Below, in pieces: positions 3,066-52,877 of a stretch of DNA of 64,000 bases; position 1 is the first letter of the stretch; each line of letters starts with the position of its first letter. The stretch is taken from positions 75,055-139,054 of the forward strand of contig DATEZQ010000001.1 of the NCBI GenBank assembly GCA_035583355.1, given 5' to 3'. Source of the stretch: Minisyncoccota bacterium. Its GTDB lineage: Bacteria > Patescibacteriota > Minisyncoccia > Phycocordibacterales > UBA6899. Under the pieces are notes generated by a model. That model saw only the letters and a list, made by a program, of their open reading frames with translations, had not been told where the DNA came from and made no database searches. A program made the position numbers and the translations under genes.

Positions 3066-3100
3066 TACAAGGGAATAAGGGGATAAGGGAATAAGGGGAT
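3066..3100. repeat. tandem ~16-nt repeat (GGGAATAAGGGGATAA x ~2.5) in divergent promoter region
   Basis: gggaataaggggataagggaataaggggataaag lies between the divergent CDF (-) and dCMP deaminase (+) starts. Confidence 0.5.
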
Positions 3101-6912: not shown

Positions 6913-8190
6913 TTATTTGTATAATACTGAGGATTTTCCTGCGACAAATCCTGTGGTCCAGCAGAGTTGTAGGCTGTAGCCCCCAGACGGTCGATCAATA
7001 TCAAGTACATCACCTGTTACGAAAAGATTCGCAAGGCGCTTTGAGCACATCGTGCGCATTTCAACTTCGGAAAGGGGAAGTCCACCAGAGGTCACAATCG
7101 CCTTATCGGTACCAAGTAGACCGGTTGGTGTAAGCGTAATGTGTTTAACAAGTCCCACTATCGCAAGCCGCTCTGCACGAGTAAGTTGATGAACCTTCTT
7201 CTCGCCATCAAGCTTGAGCTTCTCAAGCACCCCCTCAGCAAGCGACTTCTCGAAGATTTCTGGTAACGCGTTACGTAGCAGTTTGTTCTGCAGAGGCTGT
7301 AATTTCTCTTGGATCATGCGATCAAGTGCACCCTCATCGGTTTTTGGAAAAACATCAATCTCGATAGTAATTAAGTCTTCCATCATCAACGTCCAAATTT
7401 CCTTACTCATATTAAGTATGAGCGGTCCTGAAAGTCCAAAGTGGGTGAAGAGTATGCGGCCTGTTTTCTTCGCAACAACTTTTTTGTCACGTATGAGTGA
7501 GACTTTTGCTGCTTCAAAGGCAAGTCCGAGCATTCCATGAGTCCAACGCTCAAGGGTTTTTACGGGTACGAGTGAGGGGTTAGAATCATGAATCGTATGT
7601 CCTAATGATGAAAGCCATTTGAACCCGTCTCCTGTCGATCCTGTCTCGGGTCGCGAAGTGCCGCCTGTTGCAATGATGAATGCGTCTCCCTTTATGACTC
7701 TTCCGTCATCAAGGCGAACGCTCGCGATATGGTCACCATCTTTAAGTAGTTCCGCGACTCTTGCATTATATTGAATTGAGACACCTTGCCGTGCAAGTTC
7801 TGCGCCAAGTACTTCCCACACGGTTCGAGCACTATTTGTTATCGGAAACATGCGGCCCCCAGGCTCTTCTTTCATGCGCAGACCAAGCTCCGCAAAGAAT
7901 TTAATAGTATCTGCAACTGCGAATTGAGCAAAAGGGGAGTGAAGAAAATCACTCGCATCTTTGTATTTTGTCAGTAGCTTACGATTATCGATTTCGTTAT
8001 TTGTGATATTGCAGCGCCCTCCGCCTGTAATAAGCAATTTCTCACCAAGGCGGCTATTTCGTTCAAGTAAAACCACTTTTCCACCGATTCTTGCTGCAGT
8101 AATTGCAGCCATCATGCCCGCCGGTCCTCCGCCGATAACGACGACTGTTCGTTGCGCTGTTTCTCTCGGCGAAATATTCATACTAGACAT
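6913..8190 (-). CDS. NAD(P)/FAD-dependent oxidoreductase, HI0933/BaiN-like flavoprotein
   Basis: N-terminal VVVIGGGPAGMMAA dinucleotide-binding motif and GGGRCNITN signature of the HI0933 family. Confidence 0.85.
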   Translation of the reverse strand: MSSMNISPRETAQRTVVVIGGGPAGMMAAITAARIGGKVVLLERNSRLGEKLLITGGGRCNITNNEIDNRKLLTKYKDASDFLHSPFAQFAVADTIKFFAELGLRMKEEPGGRMFPITNSARTVWEVLGAELARQGVSIQYNARVAELLKDGDHIASVRLDDGRVIKGDAFIIATGGTSRPETGSTGDGFKWLSSLGHTIHDSNPSLVPVKTLERWTHGMLGLAFEAAKVSLIRDKKVVAKKTGRILFTHFGLSGPLILNMSKEIWTLMMEDLITIEIDVFPKTDEGALDRMIQEKLQPLQNKLLRNALPEIFEKSLAEGVLEKLKLDGEKKVHQLTRAERLAIVGLVKHITLTPTGLLGTDKAIVTSGGLPLSEVEMRTMCSKRLANLFVTGDVLDIDRPSGGYSLQLCWTTGFVAGKSSVLYK

Positions 8191-13110: not shown

Positions 13111-14354
13111 GTGGTCTCTTTTGAAGTAATCAGGTTATAGAGCGACTTTGCGAGCCAGAATGGAGCAATGAGTCCATAGAGGAAAAGGAATGAAAGTGTT
13201 CCGCGTGCAATGGTATATTGCTTGCGCACAAGGCGAACTCCAAACGTAATATAGAGGAGTGTGCCCAGGAAGAGGACATAAACGATTAGTCGATTGAATG
13301 TGAGATCATAAGAGAAAAGATCGAAATCCGTACTTGGCCAACCAAAGTGGAATCCCACCGCTTGTCTATATATGATCTCTTCGCCAATTGATTTTACCAC
13401 TGCTTTGATATACGCGACAGTGAAGTAGAGTGCGGTAAAGATGGAAATGAATGCAAAGGGGAGGGAGAGGACGCCAAGATAGCCATACTCACTTTTCATG
13501 AACATATGCCTATACGAGTAGTAAGCGTTTTTGAGAAAACCGGTTACCCAGCGCACACGCTGTTTATAGAGAGCAGGTAGGGTCTTTGGGGGAACGGTCC
13601 ACACGATAGCCATATGTGCATTCTCAATCTTGAGTTTGTAGGACTGGATGCGCAGTGCCATTTCCATGTCTTCGGTATGATATGCTGCACGGAAGTTGCC
13701 TATCTTGTCAAAGAGTTCACGGCGGAAGATGGAGAACGGGCCGGGGGTAACATAGAGGGCATTGATGCGCGAGAGAACCTTGCGGGTAAAGGCACCAACC
13801 ATGTACTCGATGGCTTGGATGTGCCTGAGCCAGTTGTCTGGCTTCCAAATCTGTACAGAGGGTGTGACGGAGACGACATCAGGGTCAGCGAAGAATGGAA
13901 CCATCTCGCGAAGGGCGTTGGGTTCTACATAGGAGTCTGCGTCGAGGCAGCCAATAAGGTCCGCCGTGCTCATCTCTATACCCAGATTCATAGCAGTATG
14001 CTTGCCGCCGTTTTCCTTAGTGATGATCTTCACCCTTTTATTGTCGCCAAAGTGTTTGCGAGCGACTTCAAGTGTATTATCTGTCGATCCGTCATTGACG
14101 AAGAAGACATCAAGTTTATCGGCAGGGTAGTCGAGCGCCAGAATTGAGTTAATAGTGCCAAGTATTGTGGTTCCCTCGTTCCAGGCGGGGACAATGATCG
14201 TCACTGTCGGTAGGCTTTCATCTGTTGCACGAGGTCGCTCCTTGAAGTGCATCTGGTCACGCTCTTCAATATAGGTGAGTAGCATAAAAACCTCAAAGTA
14301 GGTGACTGAGAAGAGGATTCCTATGGTTAGGATCTGTCCAATAAGTGGCAACAT
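13101..14354 (-). CDS. family 2 glycosyltransferase (processive, PgaC/IcaA/cellulose-synthase-like)
   Basis: GT2 D,D,D / QxxRW motifs (VNDGSTDNT, LDADSYV, KQRVRWVTG) with flanking TM helices. Confidence 0.85.
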   Translation of the reverse strand: MLPLIGQILTIGILFSVTYFEVFMLLTYIEERDQMHFKERPRATDESLPTVTIIVPAWNEGTTILGTINSILALDYPADKLDVFFVNDGSTDNTLEVARKHFGDNKRVKIITKENGGKHTAMNLGIEMSTADLIGCLDADSYVEPNALREMVPFFADPDVVSVTPSVQIWKPDNWLRHIQAIEYMVGAFTRKVLSRINALYVTPGPFSIFRRELFDKIGNFRAAYHTEDMEMALRIQSYKLKIENAHMAIVWTVPPKTLPALYKQRVRWVTGFLKNAYYSYRHMFMKSEYGYLGVLSLPFAFISIFTALYFTVAYIKAVVKSIGEEIIYRQAVGFHFGWPSTDFDLFSYDLTFNRLIVYVLFLGTLLYITFGVRLVRKQYTIARGTLSFLFLYGLIAPFWLAKSLYNLITSKETTWR

Positions 14355-15603: not shown

Positions 15604-16320
15604 ATGCTTGATGTTTCACTATTTTCCGCATTTTTCGCTGGTCTACTGACTTTCCTTGCGCCTTGTACTCTTCCTCTTGTGCCTGCCTACTTAGCGTTTC
15701 TTGCGAGCGAGACAGGTAAACTCGATGAAAAGAAGATTTTTCAACGCGCGCTTGCGTTCATGGTCGGTTTTTCATCGGTCATCGTATTACTCGGTGTGTT
15801 TGTCAATCAGCTTGGTCGGTATATCGCAGCGTATAGAGGAGAGCTCATTATGTTCGGAGGTCTTCTTTTTGTCCTCTTCGGCCTTACATTGCTCGGCGTC
15901 ATTAAAATCCCTGTACGAAGTGCAGGTATGCCGGCTTTCCTGAAGCCAACAAGCAACTTCGCTGTTGGACTCCTCGGAGTGGTGTTTGCATTCGGCTGGA
16001 GTCCATGTGTTGGTCCTATTCTTGGGAGTATCTATGTATTGGCCGCTCAGGCAGATACTGTGGTTCGCGGCACATTACTCCTTGTGCTTTATGCTGTCGG
16101 TCATAGTTTGCCTTTTATCCTCCTTGCTTACTTCTATGAACGATCCTTTAAGGTGGTGTCTGTACTCTCTCGCTATTCTGAAAAGATTAGTCGCGGAGCA
16201 GGAATCATACTCGTCATCATCGGACTCTTCATGCTTGTCGGACAATATGGCTTTCTGCTTTCTATTTTCGGAAAGTTCGTTGACGGTGATTGGCAGGAGA
16301 AATTGCTAAACTATCTTTAA
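15604..16320 (+). CDS. ccdA: cytochrome c-type biogenesis / thiol-disulfide transporter CcdA (DsbD beta-domain family)
   Basis: LAPCTLPLVPAYLAF plus a second conserved Cys in WSPCVGPILGSIY; 6 TM helices. Confidence 0.8.
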   Translation: MLDVSLFSAFFAGLLTFLAPCTLPLVPAYLAFLASETGKLDEKKIFQRALAFMVGFSSVIVLLGVFVNQLGRYIAAYRGELIMFGGLLFVLFGLTLLGVIKIPVRSAGMPAFLKPTSNFAVGLLGVVFAFGWSPCVGPILGSIYVLAAQADTVVRGTLLLVLYAVGHSLPFILLAYFYERSFKVVSVLSRYSEKISRGAGIILVIIGLFMLVGQYGFLLSIFGKFVDGDWQEKLLNYL

Positions 16321-30163: not shown

Positions 30164-30236
30164 GGGCCCATAGCTCAGTTGGTAGAGCAGCGCATTTGCA
30201 ATGCGAAGGTCGCAGGTTCAAATCCTGTTGGGTCCA
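30164..30236 (+). tRNA. tRNA-Ala (anticodon TGC), no encoded CCA
   Basis: Manual cloverleaf: acceptor GGGCCCA/TGGGTCC with the Ala identity pair G3:U70, D-arm GCTC-AGTTGGTA-GAGC, anticodon loop TTTGCAA, T-arm GCAGG-TTCAAAT-CCTGT, discriminator A. Confidence 0.9.
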
Positions 30237-30300
30237 CAGAGGTAGAAAAAAGAGCGCAAGCTCTTTTTTCTTTTACCTCTGTGAGACCCAACAGGATTTG
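30218..30300. repeat. extended imperfect palindrome: tRNA-Ala 3' end / terminator-like hairpin / inverted copy of tRNA 3' end
   Basis: TCAAATCCTGTTGGGTCCACAGAGGTAGAAAAAAGAGC-GCAA-GCTCTTTTTTCTTTTACCTCTGTGAGACCCAACAGGATTTGA; arms about 38 nt. Confidence 0.7.
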
Positions 30301-30446
30301 AAAGACGGAGCCGGGCACCGTCGCCCGGCGCTGATTTTATCCGGCCAAAGGCCGTGATAAATCCAGCCGCGCGCACGGTCGGCGAGTCGGGGTCGCGAGT
30401 ACTTAGCAAATAAGGAGCGAAGCTCCGCATTTGCTTAGTAACTTGT
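30237..30446 (+). repeat. tRNA-3'-trailer structured repeat element, copy E1 (truncated), candidate ncRNA
   Basis: Reverse complement aligns with E2-E4: shares the CGCGACCCCGACTCGCCGAC...GCGCGCGGCTGGATTT core, the GCCGGGC/GCCCGGC hairpin, the GGATTTATC...GATAAATCC hairpin and a CTTAG-flanked variable hairpin; lacks the distal ~90 nt. Confidence 0.6.
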
Positions 30447-30625
30447 GACCAAATCCTGTTGGGTCCTCCATTCTTTCTTTTGTATTTGAATTTGCATTTC
30501 CGGTGACAGAGGGGCAAATCCTGTTGGGTCTCTCTGGTTACGAGCGAAGCACCTTATTGTATTTGTGACTCGTGACCAAATCCTGTTGGGTCCTCTGCAT
30601 TCTTGTATTTTGCATTTCTCCTAAT
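30447..30625 (+). repeat. array of direct repeats of the tRNA-Ala 3' end (att-like fragments)
   Basis: CCAAATCCTGTTGGGTCC at 30449-30466, CAAATCCTGTTGGGTC at 30515-30530, CCAAATCCTGTTGGGTCC at 30576-30593; copies 1 and 3 sit in a ~60-nt duplicated unit (GTGACCAAATCCTGTTGGGTCCTC...ATTC..TTGTATTT..GCATTTC). Confidence 0.7.
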
Positions 30626-47495: not shown

Positions 47496-49196
47496 ATGAT
47501 CAATCGTACTGATTCACTCGAAGGTGGTAATGAGACTCCGGCGCCAAAGCGTCGCATTATTCGACATATTGTAAGGCGAGTTCCAAAGCAGCAACCTGTT
47601 GCTGATGTTTTGCCGATGACTGCAGCTGATGCAGTTGCTGCACAGGTGCTTTCAAAGAATGCGCAGGCTGAGCAGAAAGAGCCAGAGGTAGTCTTGCCCT
47701 TGAGCCCCGTGCGTACACCAATGACGGGCCGCGTACTTGAGCCGAGTGAGGAGGCGCATGCATTACTATCTGCCGATGAAGATGAGAAGCCATTCCCGGT
47801 AATTGAGTATCCTGCAATGCCAACAATTGAGCCGAAGAATATGGTGCTCGAGCAGTTTGCTGCGCGCAAAGAGAAGAGTCGCGATGAGTTGAAAGCAGCG
47901 ACACCTACTGTTCCCGCTGCAACGGGCCGCAGTCCTATTGAAAGCATTTGGCCATATATTGCCGCTGCAAAACAGCATACAAGTGAGTCTCGCGATGAGC
48001 GTGAGGTTGAAATGCCAAGCGCAAATGATCGTCAGCGTTCTGAGAGTGTCTCAGAGTTTGAACCGGAGCATAACTATTTTGCTTGGATACCTTGGGTACT
48101 TGGACCTATTATCGTTATTGCGCTCATTATTGCGGGAGTGTCATACTTTTCGGGTGCAACAGTTGTGATCACGCCGAAGACTGCGCAAGCGGATCTCCTT
48201 GCAGATCTTTCTACGGTAAAGAATGGTGATCCAGTAAAGGAATATCCACTTTCTGTGCTCGCAATCGAAGATAAGGTATTTGTTGATGTTCCTGCTACAG
48301 AGTCAAAGACATCAGTGGCAACAGCATCAGGCAAGGTGACTTTGTTCAACAAGCAGACTGTTGCCCAGAAGCTCATTAAGACTACTCGTTTTGAAGCCAC
48401 AGATGGAAAGATTTACCGCATTCATGAGAATGTAACTATTCCTGCAGCAAAGGCAGGGAAGCCAGGTACTCTTGATGTTGTTGTTTATGCAGAATCATCT
48501 GGCCCAGACTATAATCGAAAGGGTCCAGCTGAATTTACGCTTCCTGGATTCAAGGGTAAGCCACAGTTCACTCAGGTAGGAGCAAATCTTACTGGCGAAA
48601 TTTCTGGTGGTTCAGCAGGTGTAAAGAAGTCTGTTCCAAATGATGTGCTTGATGAGGTTGCTCAGAAGCTTAGAATTGAGCTTGAGAATAAACTCCGCGC
48701 TCGTGCGACACAGGAAATACTTCCAACACAGATTGGATATGAAGCCTTGTATCAGTTTACCTATAAGGAACCTGTACTCGAGGCGTCAGATGCGCCTGAG
48801 AAGGCACGAGCAGTGCTCGCAGGTACACTTTCCGCACCAGTATTTGATCGCGCAATGCTTACTAAGGCACTAGCGAAACTGGCGCTTAAGGATTATGTAG
48901 ATGAGGACATTTCTCTTGCGCATATTGAGTTGCTTCCTATTAAGTATGTCGAGGGACAGAAGGTTGATCTCATGACCGATGAAAAGGTGACGTTCCATGT
49001 AGAGGGAAGTGCAAACTTCATTTGGAAGGTAGATACCGATACATTCACTCGTGCTTTGCTTAATGTTTCAAAGGATGATGTGAAGAAAGTGATGACGAGA
49101 TTCCCAAGCATTGATCATGTTGATGCGACATTGAGGCCTTTCTGGAAGCAGTACTTCCCGGGGAGTGTGAAGGATTTCGTGGTGACGGTGAAATAG
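47496..49196 (+). CDS. hypothetical membrane-anchored protein with disordered N-terminal region
   Basis: 566 aa; low-complexity N-terminus, single TM (WIPWVLGPIIVIALIIAGV), large extracytoplasmic domain; terminator hairpin at 49211-49240. Confidence 0.55.
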   Translation: MINRTDSLEGGNETPAPKRRIIRHIVRRVPKQQPVADVLPMTAADAVAAQVLSKNAQAEQKEPEVVLPLSPVRTPMTGRVLEPSEEAHALLSADEDEKPFPVIEYPAMPTIEPKNMVLEQFAARKEKSRDELKAATPTVPAATGRSPIESIWPYIAAAKQHTSESRDEREVEMPSANDRQRSESVSEFEPEHNYFAWIPWVLGPIIVIALIIAGVSYFSGATVVITPKTAQADLLADLSTVKNGDPVKEYPLSVLAIEDKVFVDVPATESKTSVATASGKVTLFNKQTVAQKLIKTTRFEATDGKIYRIHENVTIPAAKAGKPGTLDVVVYAESSGPDYNRKGPAEFTLPGFKGKPQFTQVGANLTGEISGGSAGVKKSVPNDVLDEVAQKLRIELENKLRARATQEILPTQIGYEALYQFTYKEPVLEASDAPEKARAVLAGTLSAPVFDRAMLTKALAKLALKDYVDEDISLAHIELLPIKYVEGQKVDLMTDEKVTFHVEGSANFIWKVDTDTFTRALLNVSKDDVKKVMTRFPSIDHVDATLRPFWKQYFPGSVKDFVVTVK

Positions 49197-49240
49197 GATA
49201 ATATAAATGCAAAAAGCGCCGAGCGGCGCTTTTTGGTTTT

Positions 49241-49539
49241 GATGCGAGGGGAGCCAAAAACCGTTCCGGTTTTTGACTCATTGAACGCTTCGCGTGCATG
49301 AATCAGAGTCGAGTTCCTCGCCCCTTCGTCTCTAAGTATTCTGCTCCAAGCATTCGCAGAATACTAAGAGCGAGTAGGGCCAGGGCTCACCGACCGTGCA
49401 CGCGGCTGGATTTCTCACGGCCCTAGCAAGGGCCGGACAAATCAGCGCCGGGTGACGGTGCCCGGCTCCGCCCTTCGAGTTCTCGAGGGGGTGGCAGCAC
49501 ATAGCAAAAAAGACGCTTTCGCGTCTTTTTTGTATGCTG
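49241..49539 (-). repeat. tRNA-3'-trailer structured repeat element, copy E2 (downstream of tRNA-Lys), candidate ncRNA
   Basis: Full-length copy, in order along the tRNA strand: terminator-like hairpin (49505-49532), inverted copy of the tRNA-Lys 3' end (49474-49491), GCCGGG..CCCGGC hairpin, GGATTT..AAATC hairpin, conserved core 49375-49413, CTAAG-flanked variable hairpin, distal AAAAACCG-TTC-CGGTTTTT hairpin. Confidence 0.6.
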
Positions 49540-49612
49540 TCCCCCCTCGAGGACTCGAACCTCGGACCGTCTCGTTAAGAGCGAGCTGCTCTACCAACTG
49601 AGCTAAGGAGGG
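49540..49612 (-). tRNA. tRNA-Lys (anticodon CTT), no encoded CCA
   Basis: Manual fold of the reverse complement: acceptor CCCTCCT/AGGGGGG, D-arm GCTC-AGTTGGTA-GAGC, anticodon loop CTCTTAA, T-arm CGAGG-TTCGAGT-CCTCG, discriminator A. Confidence 0.85.
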
Positions 49613-49620
49613 ATGGGGAT

Positions 49621-49648
49621 ATAGTACCAAATCTACAAAATATTGCAA
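49621..49648 (-). promoter_or_regulatory. putative promoter of tRNA-Lys (TTGCAA-16-TACTAT)
   Basis: On the minus strand ttgcaatattttgtagatttggtactat ends about 8 nt before the tRNA 5' end; preceded by the terminator of the upstream gene. Confidence 0.45.
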
Positions 49649-49716
49649 GTGTTTTACATAAAGAAAAAGGTGTACAACGCTGTGTTGTACACCTTTTGAG
49701 GTGGTCATGCGCGGCC

Positions 49717-50079
49717 TTATTCATCGAGGAATTCCTGCATCTTCCAGAGCTCGTCGCGCATGAGCGTGAGGATCTTGGGGTTCTCGATGCGGCCGTGGCC
49801 GTGGCGGTATTCACCGAGCTTGTCGGTGCAGATGTGCTCACCGGTGGTCTGATTCACGCGGTGCTTCTTCTTGACGAGGCACGAGCACTCATCCTTCTTT
49901 GGAATGAGGATTTCGACCGTAAAGGTCTCGGTCGGCTCACTCACATCGTCGGCGCGGGTGCGGGCGACATGGGTGACGAGGCCGACACGAAGCTTCTGGG
50001 TCTTGTGCTTTTTGGCAGCGTCGCGACTGAGCACGACGTTCATGCCGGCATTGATGGGGTCAAGAACGATGGGAAGCAT
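49717..50079 (-). CDS. small Cys/His-rich hypothetical protein (120 aa)
   Basis: Start at MLPIVLDP; contains CSC...HRV...HIC...HGHG cluster; own terminator (49670-49705). Confidence 0.5.
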   Translation of the reverse strand: MLPIVLDPINAGMNVVLSRDAAKKHKTQKLRVGLVTHVARTRADDVSEPTETFTVEILIPKKDECSCLVKKKHRVNQTTGEHICTDKLGEYRHGHGRIENPKILTLMRDELWKMQEFLDE

Positions 50080-50203
50080 GTGCACTCCTTTGATATGCGT
50101 GATTGAGGAACTGCTTGTCGCATAGTAACATACAGTATACAAATGTCAAGGAATGAAAAAGGCTCGCATTGTGCGAGCCTCGTTGGCCGGAGCCAGGGAA
50201 GTA

Positions 50204-50515
50204 CTAGTCCTGATCCTCAGGAAAGGTGATCTCCGAGAACATTCCCGTGGGGATGTTCTGGACATCATGGGTCGGCGTGGCACCGAACCGCTTGCTGCAC
50301 TCCTTGCACGTGGCCAGGCCATGGCGGTGATTGAAGCGGAGTTCTCCCTTGCAGGAGTCGCACTTCTTTTTGATCACAGGCTTGGCCATCGTGACGGTCG
50401 TGACGCCATCCCGATAGTGGGACTTCACGAAGCCGACGGAGCTCGAGAGCTTGAGCTTGGCGACGATCTCTTTCGAGAGGACGACCATGGTGCCGGGGGA
50501 GAGCTGAGAGTTCAT
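50204..50515 (-). CDS. small zinc-ribbon protein (103 aa)
   Basis: Start at MNSQLSPG; C-terminal CDSCKGELRF...CKECSKRF zinc-ribbon pattern. Confidence 0.5.
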   Translation of the reverse strand: MNSQLSPGTMVVLSKEIVAKLKLSSSVGFVKSHYRDGVTTVTMAKPVIKKKCDSCKGELRFNHRHGLATCKECSKRFGATPTHDVQNIPTGMFSEITFPEDQD

Positions 50516-50600
50516 CAGAACCCTTTCAAGGAAAATGGAACGGAACGTCCGATCCGTTGTTACAATAGCATGGATTAGGGTGGAAGTCAATAGGTGGGGA

Positions 50601-50900
50601 TACGATACGAGGGGAGCCGAAAAACCCTGCGGGTTTTTGACTCATGGAACGCTTCGCGCACAGGAATCGGAGTCGAGAGACTCGCCCCTTTGTCACTAAG
50701 TCTTTTGGCGTAGTAACGCCAAAACGACTAAGTGCAAGTAGGGCCAGGACTCGCCGACTGCGCGCACGGCTGGATTTACCACGAGCGAAGCTCGGGTAAA
50801 TCCGCGCCGGTGCGGCAGTAGCACCGGCTCCGTCCTTCGAGTCCCGCTCCGGGTCTCAGTGGTTAACAAAAAAGAGCTTACGCTCTTTTTTGAACCACTG
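50601..50900 (-). repeat. tRNA-3'-trailer structured repeat element, copy E3 (downstream of tRNA-Leu), candidate ncRNA
   Basis: Aligns with E2 over its whole length; hairpins at 50859-50900 (AAAAAAGAGC-TTAC-GCTCTTTTTT core), 50806-50827, 50768-50807, 50695-50731 (CTAAG-flanked), 50616-50640; inverted tRNA-Leu 3' end copy at 50836-50858; 30-nt block GACTCGCCGACTGCGCGCACGGCTGGATTT (50748-50777) identical in E4. Confidence 0.6.
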
Positions 50901-50983
50901 TGCCCGGGGCGGGACTCGAACCCGCACGCCCGTGAGAGCGGGAGATTTTAAGTCTCCTGCGGCTACCATTACGCCACCCGGAC
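50901..50983 (-). tRNA. tRNA-Leu (anticodon TAA), long variable arm, no encoded CCA
   Basis: Reverse complement GTCCGGGTGGCGTAATGGTAGCCGCAGGAGACTTAAAATCTCC-CGCTCTCACGGGCG-TGCGGGTTCGAGTCCCGCCCCGGGCA; anticodon loop CTTAAAA. Confidence 0.85.
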
Positions 50984-50992
50984 AGTGCTTCT

Positions 50993-51021
50993 ATCGTAAC
51001 CGAAAATGAGCAATATTGCAA
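50993..51021 (-). promoter_or_regulatory. putative promoter of tRNA-Leu (TTGCAA-17-TACGAT)
   Basis: Minus strand ttgcaatattgctcattttcggttacgat lies about 10 nt upstream of the tRNA 5' end and follows the P-loop gene terminator. Confidence 0.4.
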
Positions 51022-51053
51022 AGAAAAACCGCCCTGATGGGGCGGTATGATGC

Positions 51054-51632
51054 TTAGCAGACGGGATGTCCGAGGCGCATACGCACCGCTTCAATCACAG
51101 TCTGAATCGATGAATCTTCAAGGGGGTTACTAATGGTGAAATTGGCACGGCTACCAATGTCTGAGGTAAATTGTTCATTCAACGCTGAGTCTTCTTTGAG
51201 GAATTGTTCCCAAGTCATTGTATCCTCACCAGACTTCTCTTTTCTTTCAAGGAGGCGTTTGAAGCGCACTTCTTGGGGTGCGGTGACATAGATAATGAGG
51301 TTCTGCTTGAAGCTGCGCACTGCCTCCTCGTCGGTTAACCAGCGCACGCCATCTAGGAAAAGAATTTCCTCTGTCATATTCTTTGCACGCGCAACGAGTG
51401 CACGGGAAAGTGTTCCTTTCCCAAAGCCACTATCGAGAAGTTGTGCCATGACCTGAAGGTTTTCTCGAGACTCTGTGATGCCAAAAGTCTTAAGCCCTTC
51501 GGCGAGTATACTTGAAAATCGAAGTTCTTTGAATGAATGCGGAAAGATTGCGCTCCGAATGAGTCTCATGGCAGTGCTTTTGCCCGCACCGTTTTCCCCG
51601 ACGAATCCAACACAGATCGGTTCAGACATAGA
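51054..51632 (-). CDS. P-loop NTPase, nucleoside/nucleotide-kinase-like
   Basis: Walker A GFVGENGAGKST at the N-terminus (start MSEPICVG), FLDGVRW motif, about 190 aa as for small kinases. Confidence 0.6.
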   Translation of the reverse strand, partial: SMSEPICVGFVGENGAGKSTAMRLIRSAIFPHSFKELRFSSILAEGLKTFGITESRENLQVMAQLLDSGFGKGTLSRALVARAKNMTEEILFLDGVRWLTDEEAVRSFKQNLIIYVTAPQEVRFKRLLERKEKSGEDTMTWEQFLKEDSALNEQFTSDIGSRANFTISNPLEDSSIQTVIEAVRMRLGHPVC

Positions 51633-51717
51633 TGCTCCTGTAGAGTACTTCTTTATCCAATATAGCGTGAATGATGTATTTTGCAATGGAATGTGTGATA
51701 GTGGTATACTATTGTAT

Positions 51718-52077
51718 ATGGATAACACTGCAAATTTCATTTTCGGGATTGATGTGACGCGTAATGATATTACTCCGACCGAGGTTCGTGATGCGCTTAT
51801 TCCTTGCTTTGCTGCTGCTCATCGCATGGCGCTTTTGGAACAAGAGAAGCCTGGCAATCTTTCACCACGAGAGTTTGATGGAATGAGTCTCGCAAATGCG
51901 GAACTGGTAATCAAGAAATTCTTCTATGAGCTTGGTGCTGATTATGATCATCCGACAAAAAAGAATCTAGAGGATGTGATATTGAAACTAGCAGAGTATT
52001 CAAAGAATTTTAGAAGTGATGCGGTGATTAAGCAAAATAAGCAGGAGATGTGGAGGTTGATTGATAGGTTGAGTTAG
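51718..52077 (+). CDS. hypothetical protein (119 aa)
   Basis: Start at MDNTANFIFG with TATACT -10 upstream; divergent from the P-loop gene; no domain recognised. Confidence 0.45.
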   Translation: MDNTANFIFGIDVTRNDITPTEVRDALIPCFAAAHRMALLEQEKPGNLSPREFDGMSLANAELVIKKFFYELGADYDHPTKKNLEDVILKLAEYSKNFRSDAVIKQNKQEMWRLIDRLS

Positions 52078-52084
52078 AATACAG

Positions 52085-52387
52085 AATTACAATACAAGGG
52101 CACTCAAAAACCTTGGGGTTTTGAGTGAAGGAGCGCAAGAACGCGCGAAATCGGAGTTCGGGAATCGGTCACAAGTTTCTAAGTTTTCTTCTCCGCACTG
52201 CTCGAAGAAAACTAAGAACTCGCGACCCCGACTCGCCGACTGCGCGCACGGCTGGATTTATCACGGCTCAGAGAGCCGGATAAAATCAGCAGCCGGTGCG
52301 GCAGTAGCACCGGCTCCGTCTTTCGATTCCCGCCCGTGCTGAAAAATGAAACAATCCCAAAGCTTTCGCTTTGGGATTGTCATTTTG
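52085..52387 (-). repeat. tRNA-3'-trailer structured repeat element, copy E4 (downstream of tRNA-Cys), candidate ncRNA
   Basis: Same architecture as E2/E3: hairpin 52340-52386 (arms extend into the tRNA 3' end), inverted tRNA-Cys 3' copy 52322-52339, GCCGGTGC..GCACCGGC hairpin, GGATTTATC..GATAAAATC hairpin, core 52230-52259 identical to E3, CTAAG-flanked hairpin 52179-52216, distal hairpin CTCAAAACC-TTGG-GGTTTTGAG. Confidence 0.6.
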
Positions 52388-52459
52388 AGGCACGGGCGGG
52401 AATCGAACCCGCGCATGTCGGTTTTGCAGACCGAAGCGTTACCACTTCGCCACCGTGCC
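52388..52459 (-). tRNA. tRNA-Cys (anticodon GCA), no encoded CCA
   Basis: Reverse complement GGCACGG-TG-GCG-AAGTGGTAA-CGC-T-TCGGT-CTGCAAA-ACCGA-CATG-CGCGGGTTCGATTCCCGC-CCGTGCC-T; discriminator U as expected for Cys. Confidence 0.85.
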
Positions 52460-52514
52460 GTCCCGCTACTATAGCAGTTTTTAAGGAAAAAGCAAAAGAG
52501 GCCGAGGCCTCTTT

Positions 52515-52877
52515 TTACTTCTCTTCTGTAGTTAGTTCTTCTTCATCAAGGAGCTCCGTCACACGCTGTCTATTGTATTCACCTTCATCGATGAGAAAGC
52601 GTACATAAGGGATGACATGCAACTTTGCTCGCTTCTTCATGAAGTCGCGAAATTCTTCGCGACCACGGTTGAGGAAATCGAGTGCACCTTTTTCTGCAGT
52701 GCGAGGCATCACGGAGAGCATGATGTTTGCCTGCTTCAAGTCATTTGAAAGCATGATACGCGTCACTGTAAGGAGCGACTGCCTGTTGGTATGTCGTGCG
52801 ACATACTGTGCGGCAAGGTCCTTGATGACGTGTGCCATACGCTCATCCTTGATTTGGTAGATCTTGTCTTTTTCCAT
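52515..52877 (-). CDS. rbfA: ribosome-binding factor A
   Basis: About 120 aa KH-like RbfA pattern (SLLTVTRIMLSNDLKQANIMLSV), located immediately downstream of infB. Confidence 0.8.
   Translation of the reverse strand: MEKDKIYQIKDERMAHVIKDLAAQYVARHTNRQSLLTVTRIMLSNDLKQANIMLSVMPRTAEKGALDFLNRGREEFRDFMKKRAKLHVIPYVRFLIDEGEYNRQRVTELLDEEELTTEEK

Follow-up and report, generated by a model that had tools for sequence, protein, structure and literature searches.

Probable miniature integrative cassettes at tRNA and tmRNA T-loops in a clade of Candidatus Paceibacterota

Introduction

CTXphi and IMEX are integrated as a folded single strand by the Xer recombinases of the host, and at T-loop sites a tyrosine-type recombinase is the default enzyme. 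These systems come close to the units reported here, for which literature searches gave no described match. The units appear to form a new family of miniature mobile elements with site-specific insertion, here in a CPR bacterium. They are probably protein-less integrative cassettes that use the T-loop of tRNA and tmRNA genes within one clade of Candidatus Paceibacterota (CPR), are non-autonomous and are moved in trans. A first-pass annotation of the same DNA had named a non-autonomous integrative element as a weaker alternative; that ranking is reversed here, and the element is the best supported reading because of the bounding direct repeats, the tandem arrays, the differing units at the same tRNA and the constant size.

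Units of the window and their anatomy

The window, i.e. the whole 64-kb stretch of DNA that was analysed, contains exactly four tRNA genes according to ARAGORN and Rfam:

30164..30236, + strand: tRNA-Ala(TGC), 71.4 bits; T54-A73 (30217-30236) forms the 5' arm of the E1 hairpin
49540..49612, - strand: tRNA-Lys(CTT), 62.9 bits
50901..50983, - strand: tRNA-Leu(TAA), 51.9 bits
52388..52459, - strand: tRNA-Cys(GCA), 69.1 bits

All four are still canonical despite the units (52-71 bits). The elements E1-E4 are protein-less, tightly folded and 210-300 bases long. A unit profile searched with nhmmer gives only four matches in the window (E 1.8e-43 to 1.5e-37), all directly 3' of a tRNA and co-oriented, which agrees with the earlier observation of a related element in one orientation behind every tRNA of the window. 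The overall identity, first put at about 70%, was measured as a mean column identity of 68% over 10 aligned units, and a repeat finder recovers the block common to E3 and E4 (50748-50783 versus 52230-52265, 97% identical over 36 nt).

Each unit consists of an att hairpin of 85-88 nt, two rod-like structured domains of ~90 nt (domain I) and ~60 nt (domain II), a direct repeat and, at three window loci, a separate terminator module of 50-55 nt (the distal block). The att hairpin joins the T-loop-to-3'-end part of the tRNA to a trailer, which includes a GNRA-loop terminator, and to an inverted copy of that tRNA end; its mirrored halves form ~40 bp, a duplex copy of the target gene's T-loop-to-3'-end part. 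The cassette-borne 3' side reads from C56 to the 3' end of the cognate tRNA and continues with 'CA', the trailer and the terminator. The att hairpins fold at -52 to -70 kcal/mol, with a bulge of 2-3 nt and a conserved internal loop that coincides exactly with tRNA positions 72/73.

An inverted copy of the last 20 nt of the tRNA recurs in every unit with a fixed offset (44-49 nt). The copy agrees with the cognate tRNA in 15-18 of 20 positions (mean 16.9) as against a mean of 10.7 for other tRNAs, and it follows the changes of orthologous tRNAs (CCTCG to CCTTG in L025; G to A in the T-loop in L083). The direct repeats of the tRNA C56-to-3' end begin at C56 and comprise 17 nt in W_Ala (exact), 19-20 nt in S_Gly, and 23 and 17 nt in S_Cys; at the other window loci the repeat is decayed. 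Behind the direct repeat of S_Gly and S_LysTTT stands a second terminator that differs from the first and would represent the original trailer. The length of the unit is constant, with 196-234 nt between the end of the tRNA and the direct repeat that follows (repeats at 196-215 nt; 234 nt between successive repeats). Both the inverted and the direct copies of the tRNA 3' end had been overlooked in the first-pass annotation.

The features of the four loci are as follows:

E1, 30217..30302, + strand: att hairpin (dG -64.4) made of the tRNA T-loop to 3' end, CA, trailer, GCAA-loop terminator and mirrored trailer
E1, 30285-30302, + strand: inverted copy of the tRNA end, 18/20 match
E1, 30303..30388, + strand: domain I, with P1 GAC/GUC, internal loop GGA/GA, P2 GCCGG/UCGGC and, beyond P2, a long irregular rod with an apical hairpin
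E1, 30389..30449, + strand: domain II, with closing helix GUCGCGAGU/ACUUGUGAC (two G.U pairs), CUUAG/CUUAG and a variable hairpin; its 3' limit lies exactly at the junction of GTGAC with C56
E1, 30450..30465, + strand: direct repeat of tRNA-Ala C56..C71 (CAAATCCTGTTGGGTC), the match running one base longer (17 nt in total); it is the displaced former 3' end of tRNA-Ala
Behind E1, 30466..30592, + strand: remnants of two older units, each reduced to its 3' junction end (ending in GGTGACAGAGGGG and GTGACTCGTGAC) and followed by a further direct repeat (30515-30530, 30577-30592)
E2, 49474..49559, - strand: att hairpin, dG -59.3, with the inverted copy at 49474-49491 (17/20)
E2, 49383..49473, - strand: domain I
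E2, 49321..49382, - strand: domain II, junction type ending in GAGACGAAGGGG
E2, 49300..49320, - strand: decayed direct repeat and T-loop-like remnants (CGAGGAACTCGACTCTGATTC)
E2, 49245..49299, - strand: distal block, a small GCGAAGC hairpin and a bidirectional terminator hairpin
E3, 50836..50920, - strand: att hairpin, dG -63.1, with the inverted copy at 50836-50853 (17/20)
E3, 50747..50835, - strand: domain I
E3, 50685..50746, - strand: domain II, junction ending in GTGACAAAGGGG
E3, 50663..50684, - strand: decayed direct repeat (CGAGTC..)
E3, 50608..50662, - strand: distal block, with 83% identity to that of E2 over 88 nt
E4, 52322..52407, - strand: att hairpin, dG -63.4, with the inverted copy at 52322-52339 (18/20)
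E4, 52230..52321, - strand: domain I
E4, 52168..52229, - strand: domain II, junction of the E1 type ending in CTTGTGAC; repeat I1, 93% identical over 56 nt
E4, 52147..52167, - strand: partial direct repeat (CGATTCCCG, diverged after)
E4, 52095..52146, - strand: distal block variant, a small hairpin and a terminator hairpin

Three earlier descriptions are corrected by this anatomy. E1 is not truncated but a complete unit (30237-30449) without the optional distal block; TAGGGCCAGG, once taken as the conserved core, is not universal but one among several junction variants; and the distal block of E2, E3 and E4 is a separate module beyond the decayed direct repeat.

Arrays, turnover and targets in relatives

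The same units occur in relatives of the same Paceibacteria clade, after ten tRNA species and tmRNA and often in tandem. Observed targets include Ala(TGC), Ala(GGC), Lys(CTT), Lys(TTT), Leu(TAA), Leu(CAA), Cys, Val, Gly and tmRNA; at Phe and Arg, a second scaffold family follows the same principle, and one scaffold family serves at least 11 targets. The orthologous locus of the congener SKS1.bin43 (IF-2 89% identical) contains tandem arrays of differing scaffold variants, with two units at Cys, three at Leu and two at Lys. A relative with Ddl 94% identical has another trailer behind tRNA-Ala, L084 has the Leu and Lys scaffolds exchanged relative to the window, and the distal block of E4 is missing at the orthologous site in L025. 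The '4 of 4' count does not extend to a general rule, as tRNA-Ser(CGA) of L006 and tRNA-Ala(GGC) of L033 have no unit; the latter site is occupied in L088. This comparison covers one clade with mostly short related contigs, and assemblies from short reads break at the unit repeats.

Proposed mechanism

A trans-acting recombinase would first link the chromosomal tRNA gene, between its T55 and C56, to the unit; in place of the tyrosine type, the enzyme may be HUH- or Cas1-like. The 5' part of the tRNA would then run into the cassette-borne 3' end and terminator, and the tRNA would therefore stay intact. The old 3' end would be displaced downstream as the direct repeat and subsequently decay. Repeated insertion at the regenerated site would build tandem arrays with the newest unit beside the tRNA, and recombination would exchange scaffold modules between loci. 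By analogy with integron attC sites and the attP of CTXphi, the intermediate is possibly a folded single strand. The two rods could bind the recombinase or accessory factors, prime the single strand or give an RNA product.

Anatomy, junction position, arrays, turnover among relatives, intact tRNAs and covarying helices are direct observations, whereas we infer movement in trans from comparison, since neither an excised circle nor an empty and filled pair within one species was seen. The searches of the 64-kb window and of ~100 kb of related loci recovered no recombinase of any kind; tblastn was run with approximate XerD and lambda Int sequences as queries. Recombinase, transposase and reverse transcriptase domains were absent from the scanned window ORFs of at least 120 aa, in keeping with the earlier remark that no such gene is adjacent, and from the precomputed annotations of L024 and L025. 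Further points weigh against cassettes. The reading gives no account of matched A/A' arms on a common scaffold for at least 11 targets, and the long covarying rods are unlike classical double-stranded attP arms, which points to a single-stranded intermediate or to another role of the rods, e.g. as RNA. Moreover, the orientation of the units with respect to the GC-skew strand is mixed (Ala on +, Lys, Leu and Cys on -), which does not fit a strict lagging-strand single-strand mechanism.

Folding and the alternative of an RNA gene

The covarying hairpins described earlier withstand shuffled and slid controls. Paired cells reach 93.1% versus 82.2% in shuffles (0/500), and 16 of 35 pairs are changed on both sides, versus 8.7 in shuffles and 1-5 with the partners slid. 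P1 covaries across variants as GAC/GUC, GGC/GCC and AGC/GCU, and P2 as GCCGG/UCGGC, GGCUGC/GUAGCC and GCUC/GAGC; the folding z-scores of the scaffold are mostly -4 to -8 (range -1.2 to -8.6). The covarying helices indicate that selection acts on the small unit. The earlier proposal that a folded nucleic acid is under selection is supported, whereas the (+) orientation of E2-E4, in which the motifs were first described, is not the favoured strand: the tRNA-sense strand is more likely to fold, because it has G > C and the lower MFE in 16/16 units and an invariant G.U pair in P2 in 10/10.

The same asymmetry speaks for a scaffold that is above all a structured ncRNA gene, read through from the tRNA promoter in tRNA sense and freed by 3' processing, with the repeats merely reflecting how the RNA gene arrived. 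Its inverted copy and downstream direct repeat could pair in the read-through RNA to give a closed, stable particle. The z-score is also more negative on the tRNA-sense strand in 11/16 units, and that strand has GNRA hairpin loops, two G.U pairs in the type-alpha closing helix, an internal loop of the RNA-like tandem-GA type (GGA/GA) and rods of several helices that show compensatory changes. However, G.T wobble in folded single-stranded DNA gives an identical asymmetry, and the skew of G.U over A.C is moderate (26 versus 10, or 16 versus 10 without the invariant pair). A GNRA-loop hairpin with a T-run precedes the scaffold in every unit by our reading of the folds (the terminator scan flagged the tRNA-Cys hairpin only), deeper array units lie behind several such hairpins, and no promoter-like site lies ahead of the scaffold on the tRNA-sense strand. 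The RNA gene is therefore considered unlikely, even if the scaffold may have an RNA role.

Related suggestions of the first-pass annotation fare accordingly. The terminator-like hairpins were found, and a TTGCAA-type promoter match was obtained upstream of tRNA-Ala only, none being listed directly upstream of Lys, Leu or Cys (scan 49100-52600). A universal 3' trailer ncRNA freed by tRNA processing is weakened, because the terminator precedes the scaffold and some tRNAs are without the element. [quoted passage not shown] The element matched no known Rfam family (E up to 10), a collection that presumably includes IS605-orfB-type models.

Other alternatives

A guide-type RNA with the logic of TnpB omega-RNA or IS110 bridge RNA is improbable. 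Two target-specific segments would flank the conserved scaffold, on its 5' side the inverted copy (antisense to the end of the tRNA) and on its 3' side the direct repeat (sense). They would guide a nuclease or recombinase encoded in trans to the two strands of the cognate tRNA gene, and G53-T54-T55 would serve as the adjacent motif. Both target-matching segments do abut the scaffold exactly at T-loop positions, the many targets of one scaffold family suit a guide, and S_Gly and S_LysTTT have the order scaffold, 13-20-nt target match, terminator. On the other hand, no TnpB, IscB, IS110 or other candidate gene is present in the window or related loci, the Rfam scan is empty and a promoter is not evident. 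The downstream repeat of E2, E3 and E4 is decayed while the scaffolds are intact, and a repeat-guided nuclease would also cut the regenerated tRNA of the occupied allele.

The units might instead be scars, i.e. attL/attR arms left after internal deletion of larger, integrase-bearing prophages or islands formerly resident in these tRNA genes (CIME-like remnants). Direct repeats of tRNA 3' ends and tandem accretion are classical for integrase-mediated islands, and heavily deleted remnants exist downstream of E1 and in L033. Yet ~25 units in at least 7 genomes share the same complete architecture and size with an integrase beside none, the covarying helices indicate selection on the small unit, and nothing related was found among 2.9 million viral contigs, so that this origin is decidedly improbable.

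Hairpin-ended single-strand transposons of the IS200/IS605-PATE or REP/RAYT kind, with a Y1 HUH enzyme nicking the single-stranded T-loop, are the least probable: hairpins at both ends, a strand-specific fold, a right end immediately 3' of a hairpin, GTAG/CTTAG motifs around hairpin D and GCGAAGC mini-hairpin motifs recall them, but the long direct repeats and the carried target copy are foreign to that family, the left hairpin begins at the junction with no space for a guide tetranucleotide, no Y1_Tnp domain is present in the window, and both orientations relative to GC skew occur.

Comparison with known systems

Like integron cassettes and their attC sites, the units are small and promoter-less, have no recombinase of their own and contain a long imperfect palindrome with conserved bulges, strand-specific folding and a crossover at the hairpin base; successive insertion at a single regenerated site also gives arrays with the newest unit proximal. 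In contrast, they have no R/L boxes (RYYYAAC/GTTRRRY), IntI, attI or ORF, they insert in the T-loop of many tRNA genes and tmRNA, and their hairpin copies the target gene sequence and is joined by two extra structured rods.

With CTXphi and IMEX, the units share the lack of an own integrase and the regenerated target site. The integrated layout, with the left half of the target, the first hairpin arm, the loop, the second arm, the remaining element and the right half of the target in this order, is common to both and is exactly what single-strand hairpin integration predicts. Unlike CTXphi and IMEX, the units target the tRNA T-loop and not dif, measure 0.2 kb instead of being a phage, and contain no recognised Xer sites.

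The genomic islands that target tRNA and tmRNA genes and their non-autonomous derivatives (CIMEs) resemble the units in the T-loop crossover (the T-loop class of integrase sites), the replacement tRNA 3' end supplied by the element, the bounding 3'-end direct repeats and the tandem accretion. The units differ in being 100 times smaller with an integrase nowhere nearby, in the inverted site copy that forms a 40-bp hairpin, in the at least 11 targets per scaffold family and in the covarying rods.

PATEs (IS200/IS605-derived), REP/BIME and the omega-RNA and bridge-RNA guides are likewise protein-less, hairpin-rich, strand-specific and small, with target-matching segments directly beside a conserved scaffold, whereas the units have no Rfam match and no TnpA, TnpB, IscB or IS110 gene, and possess long direct repeats together with their own copy of the target.

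Units downstream of the tRNA genes

The four tRNA genes of the window, namely tRNA-Ala(TGC) on the forward strand and tRNA-Lys(CTT), tRNA-Leu(TAA), and tRNA-Cys(GCA) on the reverse strand, are intact, and each is followed by one unit (E1, E2, E3, and E4, respectively). A profile derived from the units gives exactly four matches in the window (E 1.8e-43 to 1.5e-37), all directly 3' of a tRNA and in the same orientation as that tRNA. The feature is real and statistically solid. The first-pass annotation had placed the elements correctly and had rightly described their orientation as fixed. The mean column identity of 68% agrees with its value of about 70%, and the shared blocks that it described were recovered by a repeat finder, which gives 97% identity over 36 nt for the block common to E3 and E4. 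It had also called E1 truncated, which is incorrect: E1 is complete, because the distal block of E2-E4 lies beyond the direct repeat and is a separate module.

Anatomy of the units

Terminal hairpin: Read from each locus in the direction of its tRNA, every element opens with a near-perfect hairpin of 85-88 nt, with a predicted stability of -52 to -70 kcal/mol. The 5' arm consists of the tRNA's own T54-to-A73 segment, 'CA', and the trailer, the tip is formed by a terminator that has a GNRA loop, an A-run, and a T-run, and the 3' arm mirrors the 5' arm and ends in an inverted copy of the tRNA 3' end (...TCGAA). The inverted copy lies 44-49 nt past the tRNA end in 17 of 17 units examined, and its agreement with the tRNA of its own unit is 15-18 of 20 positions, compared to 10.7 on average for other tRNAs. 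Pairing is consistently lacking at positions 72/73, which leaves a conserved internal loop exactly at the tRNA 3' end.

Body and direct repeat: The hairpin is followed by two folded domains and then by a direct repeat of the tRNA from C56 on. The insertion point is after G53-T54-T55 in every unit, and the direct repeats of the window and its relatives start at C56 and extend over 13-23 nt. At tRNA-Ala of the window the repeat is exact over 17 nt, and two further direct repeats, each behind the remnant of an older unit, are present downstream of E1. At tRNA-Cys, tRNA-Leu, and tRNA-Lys of the window the repeat is reduced to 6-9 nt. No inverted repeat is formed by the two ends of a unit (C56.. 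and ..GTGAC), and the last base varies (C, G, T, or A). ORFs within the units are 40-73 aa long and differ among copies, and the indels in the unit alignment are not multiples of three.

Distal block: Past the direct repeat, E2, E3, and E4 have a mini-hairpin and a terminator. The copies located are as follows.

Window, 49245-49299, 50608-50662, and 52095-52146: distal block
L012 (locus of a relative), about 7790-8000: distal block
L025 (orthologous locus of the MAG SKS1.bin43), 14150-14300 and 15750-15815: distal block

The block occurs only at the far end of arrays and in several sequence variants, its copies of 50-75 nt comprising a small GCGAAGC-type hairpin and a bidirectional terminator. 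The opposite strand reads TTGACT and, 18-19 nt on, a weak -10-like hexamer, facing into the array.

Fold and covariation

Covariation was assessed on an alignment of 10 main-type units with 35 predicted pairs, 16 of which are altered on both sides, against 1-5 such pairs in slid controls. Paired cells amount to 93.1% versus 82.2% in shuffles (0/500). Both the covarying structure and the compensatory hairpins proposed in the first-pass annotation are thereby borne out. One plan is common to all 20 units folded. In domain I, P1 is formed by GAC/GUC, GGC/GCC, AGC/GCU, and others, and P2 by GCCGG/UCGGC, GGCUGC/GUAGCC, GCUC/GAGC, and others; an asymmetric GGA/GA internal loop is invariant in these 20 units, and a long irregular rod extends past P2. 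In domain II, a closing helix, with a 3' strand that runs precisely to the junction, is accompanied by a motif of either CUUAG/CUUAG or GUAG/ACAG and by a hairpin that varies among units. All variants were recovered by nhmmer together with manual structure comparison, automatic domain boundaries being unreliable.

On both strands the folding z-scores fall mostly between -4 and -8, within a full range of -1.2 to -8.6. In 16 of 16 units G outnumbers C on the tRNA-sense strand and the MFE is lower there, and an invariant G.U pair lies on this strand. This strand is therefore taken, with moderate confidence, as the one that folds, either as RNA or as single-stranded DNA.

Targets and turnover in relatives

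An identical IF-2 listed by NCBI under Candidatus Paceibacterota places the window organism in that group. A core-pattern scan of the GTDB representative genomes gave five true matches, all in SKS1.bin43, a congener of the window organism with 89% identical IF-2; the other 12 matches are chance occurrences in high-GC genomes without tRNAs alongside. The SKS1.bin43 units lie 3' of tRNA-Lys(TTT), Leu(CAA), Val(GAC), Gly(CCC), and tmRNA. Its orthologous locus, L025, has the order infB-rbfA-tRNA-Cys...tRNA-Leu...tRNA-Lys, with tandem arrays of differing scaffold variants: two units at tRNA-Cys, with an exact CGATTCCCGCCCGTGCC repeat at the end of each, three at tRNA-Leu, and two at tRNA-Lys. In another related locus, L084, the Leu and Lys scaffolds are swapped relative to the window, and the tRNA-matching arms stay local. 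The trailer after tRNA-Ala differs in a relative with 94% identical Ddl. More distant relatives (Ddl 71-72% identical) have further variants at tRNA-Ala(TGC) and Ala(GGC), and in one further genome tRNA-Ala(GGC) has no unit and is followed by a plain terminator.

A second scaffold family follows the same hairpin-plus-repeat logic at tRNA-Phe and tRNA-Arg. Its copies in L017, a locus of SKS1.bin43, are the following.

L017, 3540-3840, reverse strand: second scaffold family (GGGAAGGGGTCGGGAAACGGGAGTTTCC...)
L017, 5130-5410, forward strand: second scaffold family (GGGAAGGGGTCGGGAAACGGGAGTTTCC...)

It occurs in SKS1.bin43 behind tRNA-Phe and behind an incomplete second copy of tRNA-Arg(CCT), and in it the tRNA end recurs in inverted form, together with a structured body and direct repeats.

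Other tRNA-linked sequences were also seen. At L017 4664-5060, a 120-nt repeat stands in about four tandem copies directly after tRNA-Arg(CCT); the copies span an assembly gap of N and are followed by a duplicated 3' two-thirds of the tRNA-Arg(CCT) gene; this is another kind of insertion at a tRNA gene. At L017 6050-6260, the 5' part of a tRNA-like sequence (Gly/Pro-like, anticodon CGG), which ARAGORN does not call, has its T-stem joined directly to a scaffold remnant, past which GGTTCGAT|TC|ATCGAAC forms a T-loop abutting its own inverted copy. It resembles a unit that has lost its palindrome by deletion, with a dead tRNA left behind. Downstream of tRNA-Ser(CGA) in a further related locus (L006, 6400-6497, reverse strand) a unit is absent, and GGGGGATCGAA, the inverted T-arm end of a different tRNA, flanks a hairpin, which may therefore be a relic.

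The short-read contigs of the clade typically end within or just beyond tRNA-linked units (L024, L030-L032, L083, L084, and L089). In these MAGs of the candidate phyla radiation (CPR), assemblies thus break systematically at the units, and tRNAs go missing as a result.

Searches for known families and for an enzyme

Rfam 15, at the gathering score and with cmscan to E 10, returned only tRNAs plus noise, so that the possible Rfam match considered in the first-pass annotation did not emerge. Pfam scans of the window's non-overlapping ORFs of at least 120 aa, with those at 38-49 kb and 58-63 kb covered via precomputed annotations of the related loci L024 and L025, found housekeeping genes only. 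There was no Phage_integrase domain and no gene for TnpB, IscB, or IS110 recombinase in the scanned ORFs, and no Y1_Tnp domain in the window. In addition, tblastn with XerD and lambda Int found nothing in the window and 29 fetched loci. The earlier statement that no reverse transcriptase, transposase, or integrase is adjacent extends to the whole 64 kb and the fetched related loci, where no HUH enzyme was found either.

Four pattern scans of viral contigs gave 0, 0, 33, and 15 matches, all by chance, in phage contigs averaging 66% GC, and no profile match. The core-pattern scan of JGI metagenome contigs gave six matches, none with a tRNA alongside; the profile gave them only low scores, 13-14 bits at E about 0.004-0.006, confined to the pattern itself, and they are read as chance. 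A literature search found no description of such elements.

Two small ORFs are located between the tRNA-Leu array and tRNA-Lys.

Window, 49717-50079 and 50204-50515, reverse strand: small ORF pair
L025, 14378-14728 and 14848-15213: counterparts of the small ORF pair

They encode about 103 and 120 aa, are weakly paralogous (BLASTP E 0.009), have their own promoter-like site and terminator each, and lie in the GC-richest part of the window (0.53-0.56 versus about 0.46). In the 120-aa product, residues C, C, H, C, H, and H are invariant; its homologues number only seven, all in close relatives on contigs of 1-2.3 kb. Examined as candidate partner proteins, the two gave no evidence of being recombinases: they belong to no Pfam or PHROG family, and a poor AlphaFold model (pLDDT 66) gave no significant PDB match. 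Elsewhere in the window, 3069-3100 holds a short tandem 8-nt repeat, AAGGGAAT/AAGGGGAT (repeat family D18).

Proposed site-specific integration and its alternatives

The units are most simply explained as small non-autonomous cassettes that integrate site-specifically at T55|C56 of tRNA and tmRNA genes. The observations behind this reading are that the direct repeats start at one fixed T-loop position, the unit size is constant, tandem arrays decay more with distance from the tRNA, occupants differ at the same tRNA in close relatives, and the tRNAs are intact. The cassette would supply a replacement tRNA 3' end and a terminator. What the first-pass annotation regarded as its weaker alternative, a non-autonomous integrative element, is now the best explanation; its observation stands with corrections, and the RNA hypothesis that it favoured is only partly supported.

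An RNA product from the scaffold is possible on either strand, as is a guide-type role for the tRNA-matching segments. A simple trailer RNA, on the other hand, has against it the terminator-shaped hairpin in front of the scaffold (only that of tRNA-Cys was flagged by the terminator scan), and no promoter was found for the scaffold.

One scaffold family is found with matched hairpin replicas of at least 11 different targets, and therefore either a recombinase reads only the universal T-loop or targeting proceeds via nucleic-acid pairing. That the target is chosen by nucleic acid rather than by protein is considered improbable. In such a mechanism, a base-paired replica of the cognate tRNA gene from T-loop to 3' end would be displayed by the hairpin, or by an RNA with both the inverted and the direct copy, one trans-acting enzyme would choose the matching gene by reading this replica, and a cassette that moved to another host tRNA would have its arms templated anew from the target. 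If true, site-specific integration at tRNA and tmRNA genes would be governed by a self-contained 'address label' that can be programmed, a system categorically new and unlike any recombination system described so far.

If integration as such is correct, no site-specific integrative element described for tRNA genes would be smaller than these units, which are gene-less and about 0.2 kb long. They provide terminators for the occupied tRNA genes, create partial tRNA copies that confuse annotation, and break short-read CPR assemblies at almost every tRNA. If the enzyme were identified, the system could be turned into a compact insertion tool for tRNA-like sites of choice, and could also give a view on single-stranded DNA biology in organisms living by DNA uptake.

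Comparison with known systems

Each known family that could be tested has at least one defining trait that the units lack; they are classed as non-autonomous site-specific integrative elements at tRNA genes that were not found described before.

Elements of other mechanisms: An RNA-guided nuclease that cuts empty sites is rejected because it would cut the occupied allele as well. A tmRNA- or tRNA-like RNA is rejected: ARAGORN is blank in the units, and, judged by eye from the sequences, the copied T-stem half has no pairing partner. So is a group I intron, which would match Rfam Intron_gpI, interrupt the tRNA, and end in G: there is no Rfam hit, the tRNAs are intact, and the last base is C, G, T, or A; published Patescibacteria tRNA group I introns are at anticodon-loop position 35/36 (10.1101/2025.07.03.662931). 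Omega-RNA and bridge RNA are defined by a model match and adjacency to TnpB, IscB, or IS110, and neither was found for the units in Rfam or in the scanned ORFs. MITEs have terminal inverted repeats and a 2-10 bp duplication, whereas the units have no such termini and their repeats are 13-23 nt of tRNA sequence. IS200/IS605-PATE and REP/RAYT elements are marked by a Y1 HUH transposase in the genome, insertion 3' of a fixed tetra- or pentanucleotide, and no target duplication; the units show a fixed insertion after G53-T54-T55, long direct repeats, and, in the window, no Y1_Tnp.

Islands and CIMEs: Like tRNA-targeting islands and CIMEs, the units are bounded by direct repeats of the tRNA 3' part. 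However, those have an integrase inside the element or in a tandem partner, and none was found for the units in the window or the fetched loci.

Integrons: The R''/L''-L'/R' boxes of attC (RYYYAAC...GTTRRRY) are not visible in the unit hairpins, whose bases read TTCGA.../...TCGAA, the T-loop. Moreover, integrons have intI and attI beside the array, and neither is seen with the units, the window scans and tblastn being negative for an integrase. The likeness lies in tandem independent units at one regenerated insertion point, as in the L025 arrays of 2, 3, and 2 and the remnants after E1.

IMEX: CTXphi-like IMEX integrate at dif via XerC/XerD, and the unit junctions are in tRNA T-loops instead. 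The unit layout and strand asymmetry are compatible with a folded single-stranded attP as in IMEX. Integration of CTXphi as a folded single strand gives the layout left half, arm, loop, arm, element, and right half, and integron cassettes form arrays that grow at a regenerated site. The units have the CTXphi order of target left half, hairpin arm, loop, other arm, element remainder, and target right half, and their array growth at a regenerated site parallels that of integron cassettes. Owing to these two likenesses and the strand-biased folding, a single-stranded intermediate is favoured by analogy.
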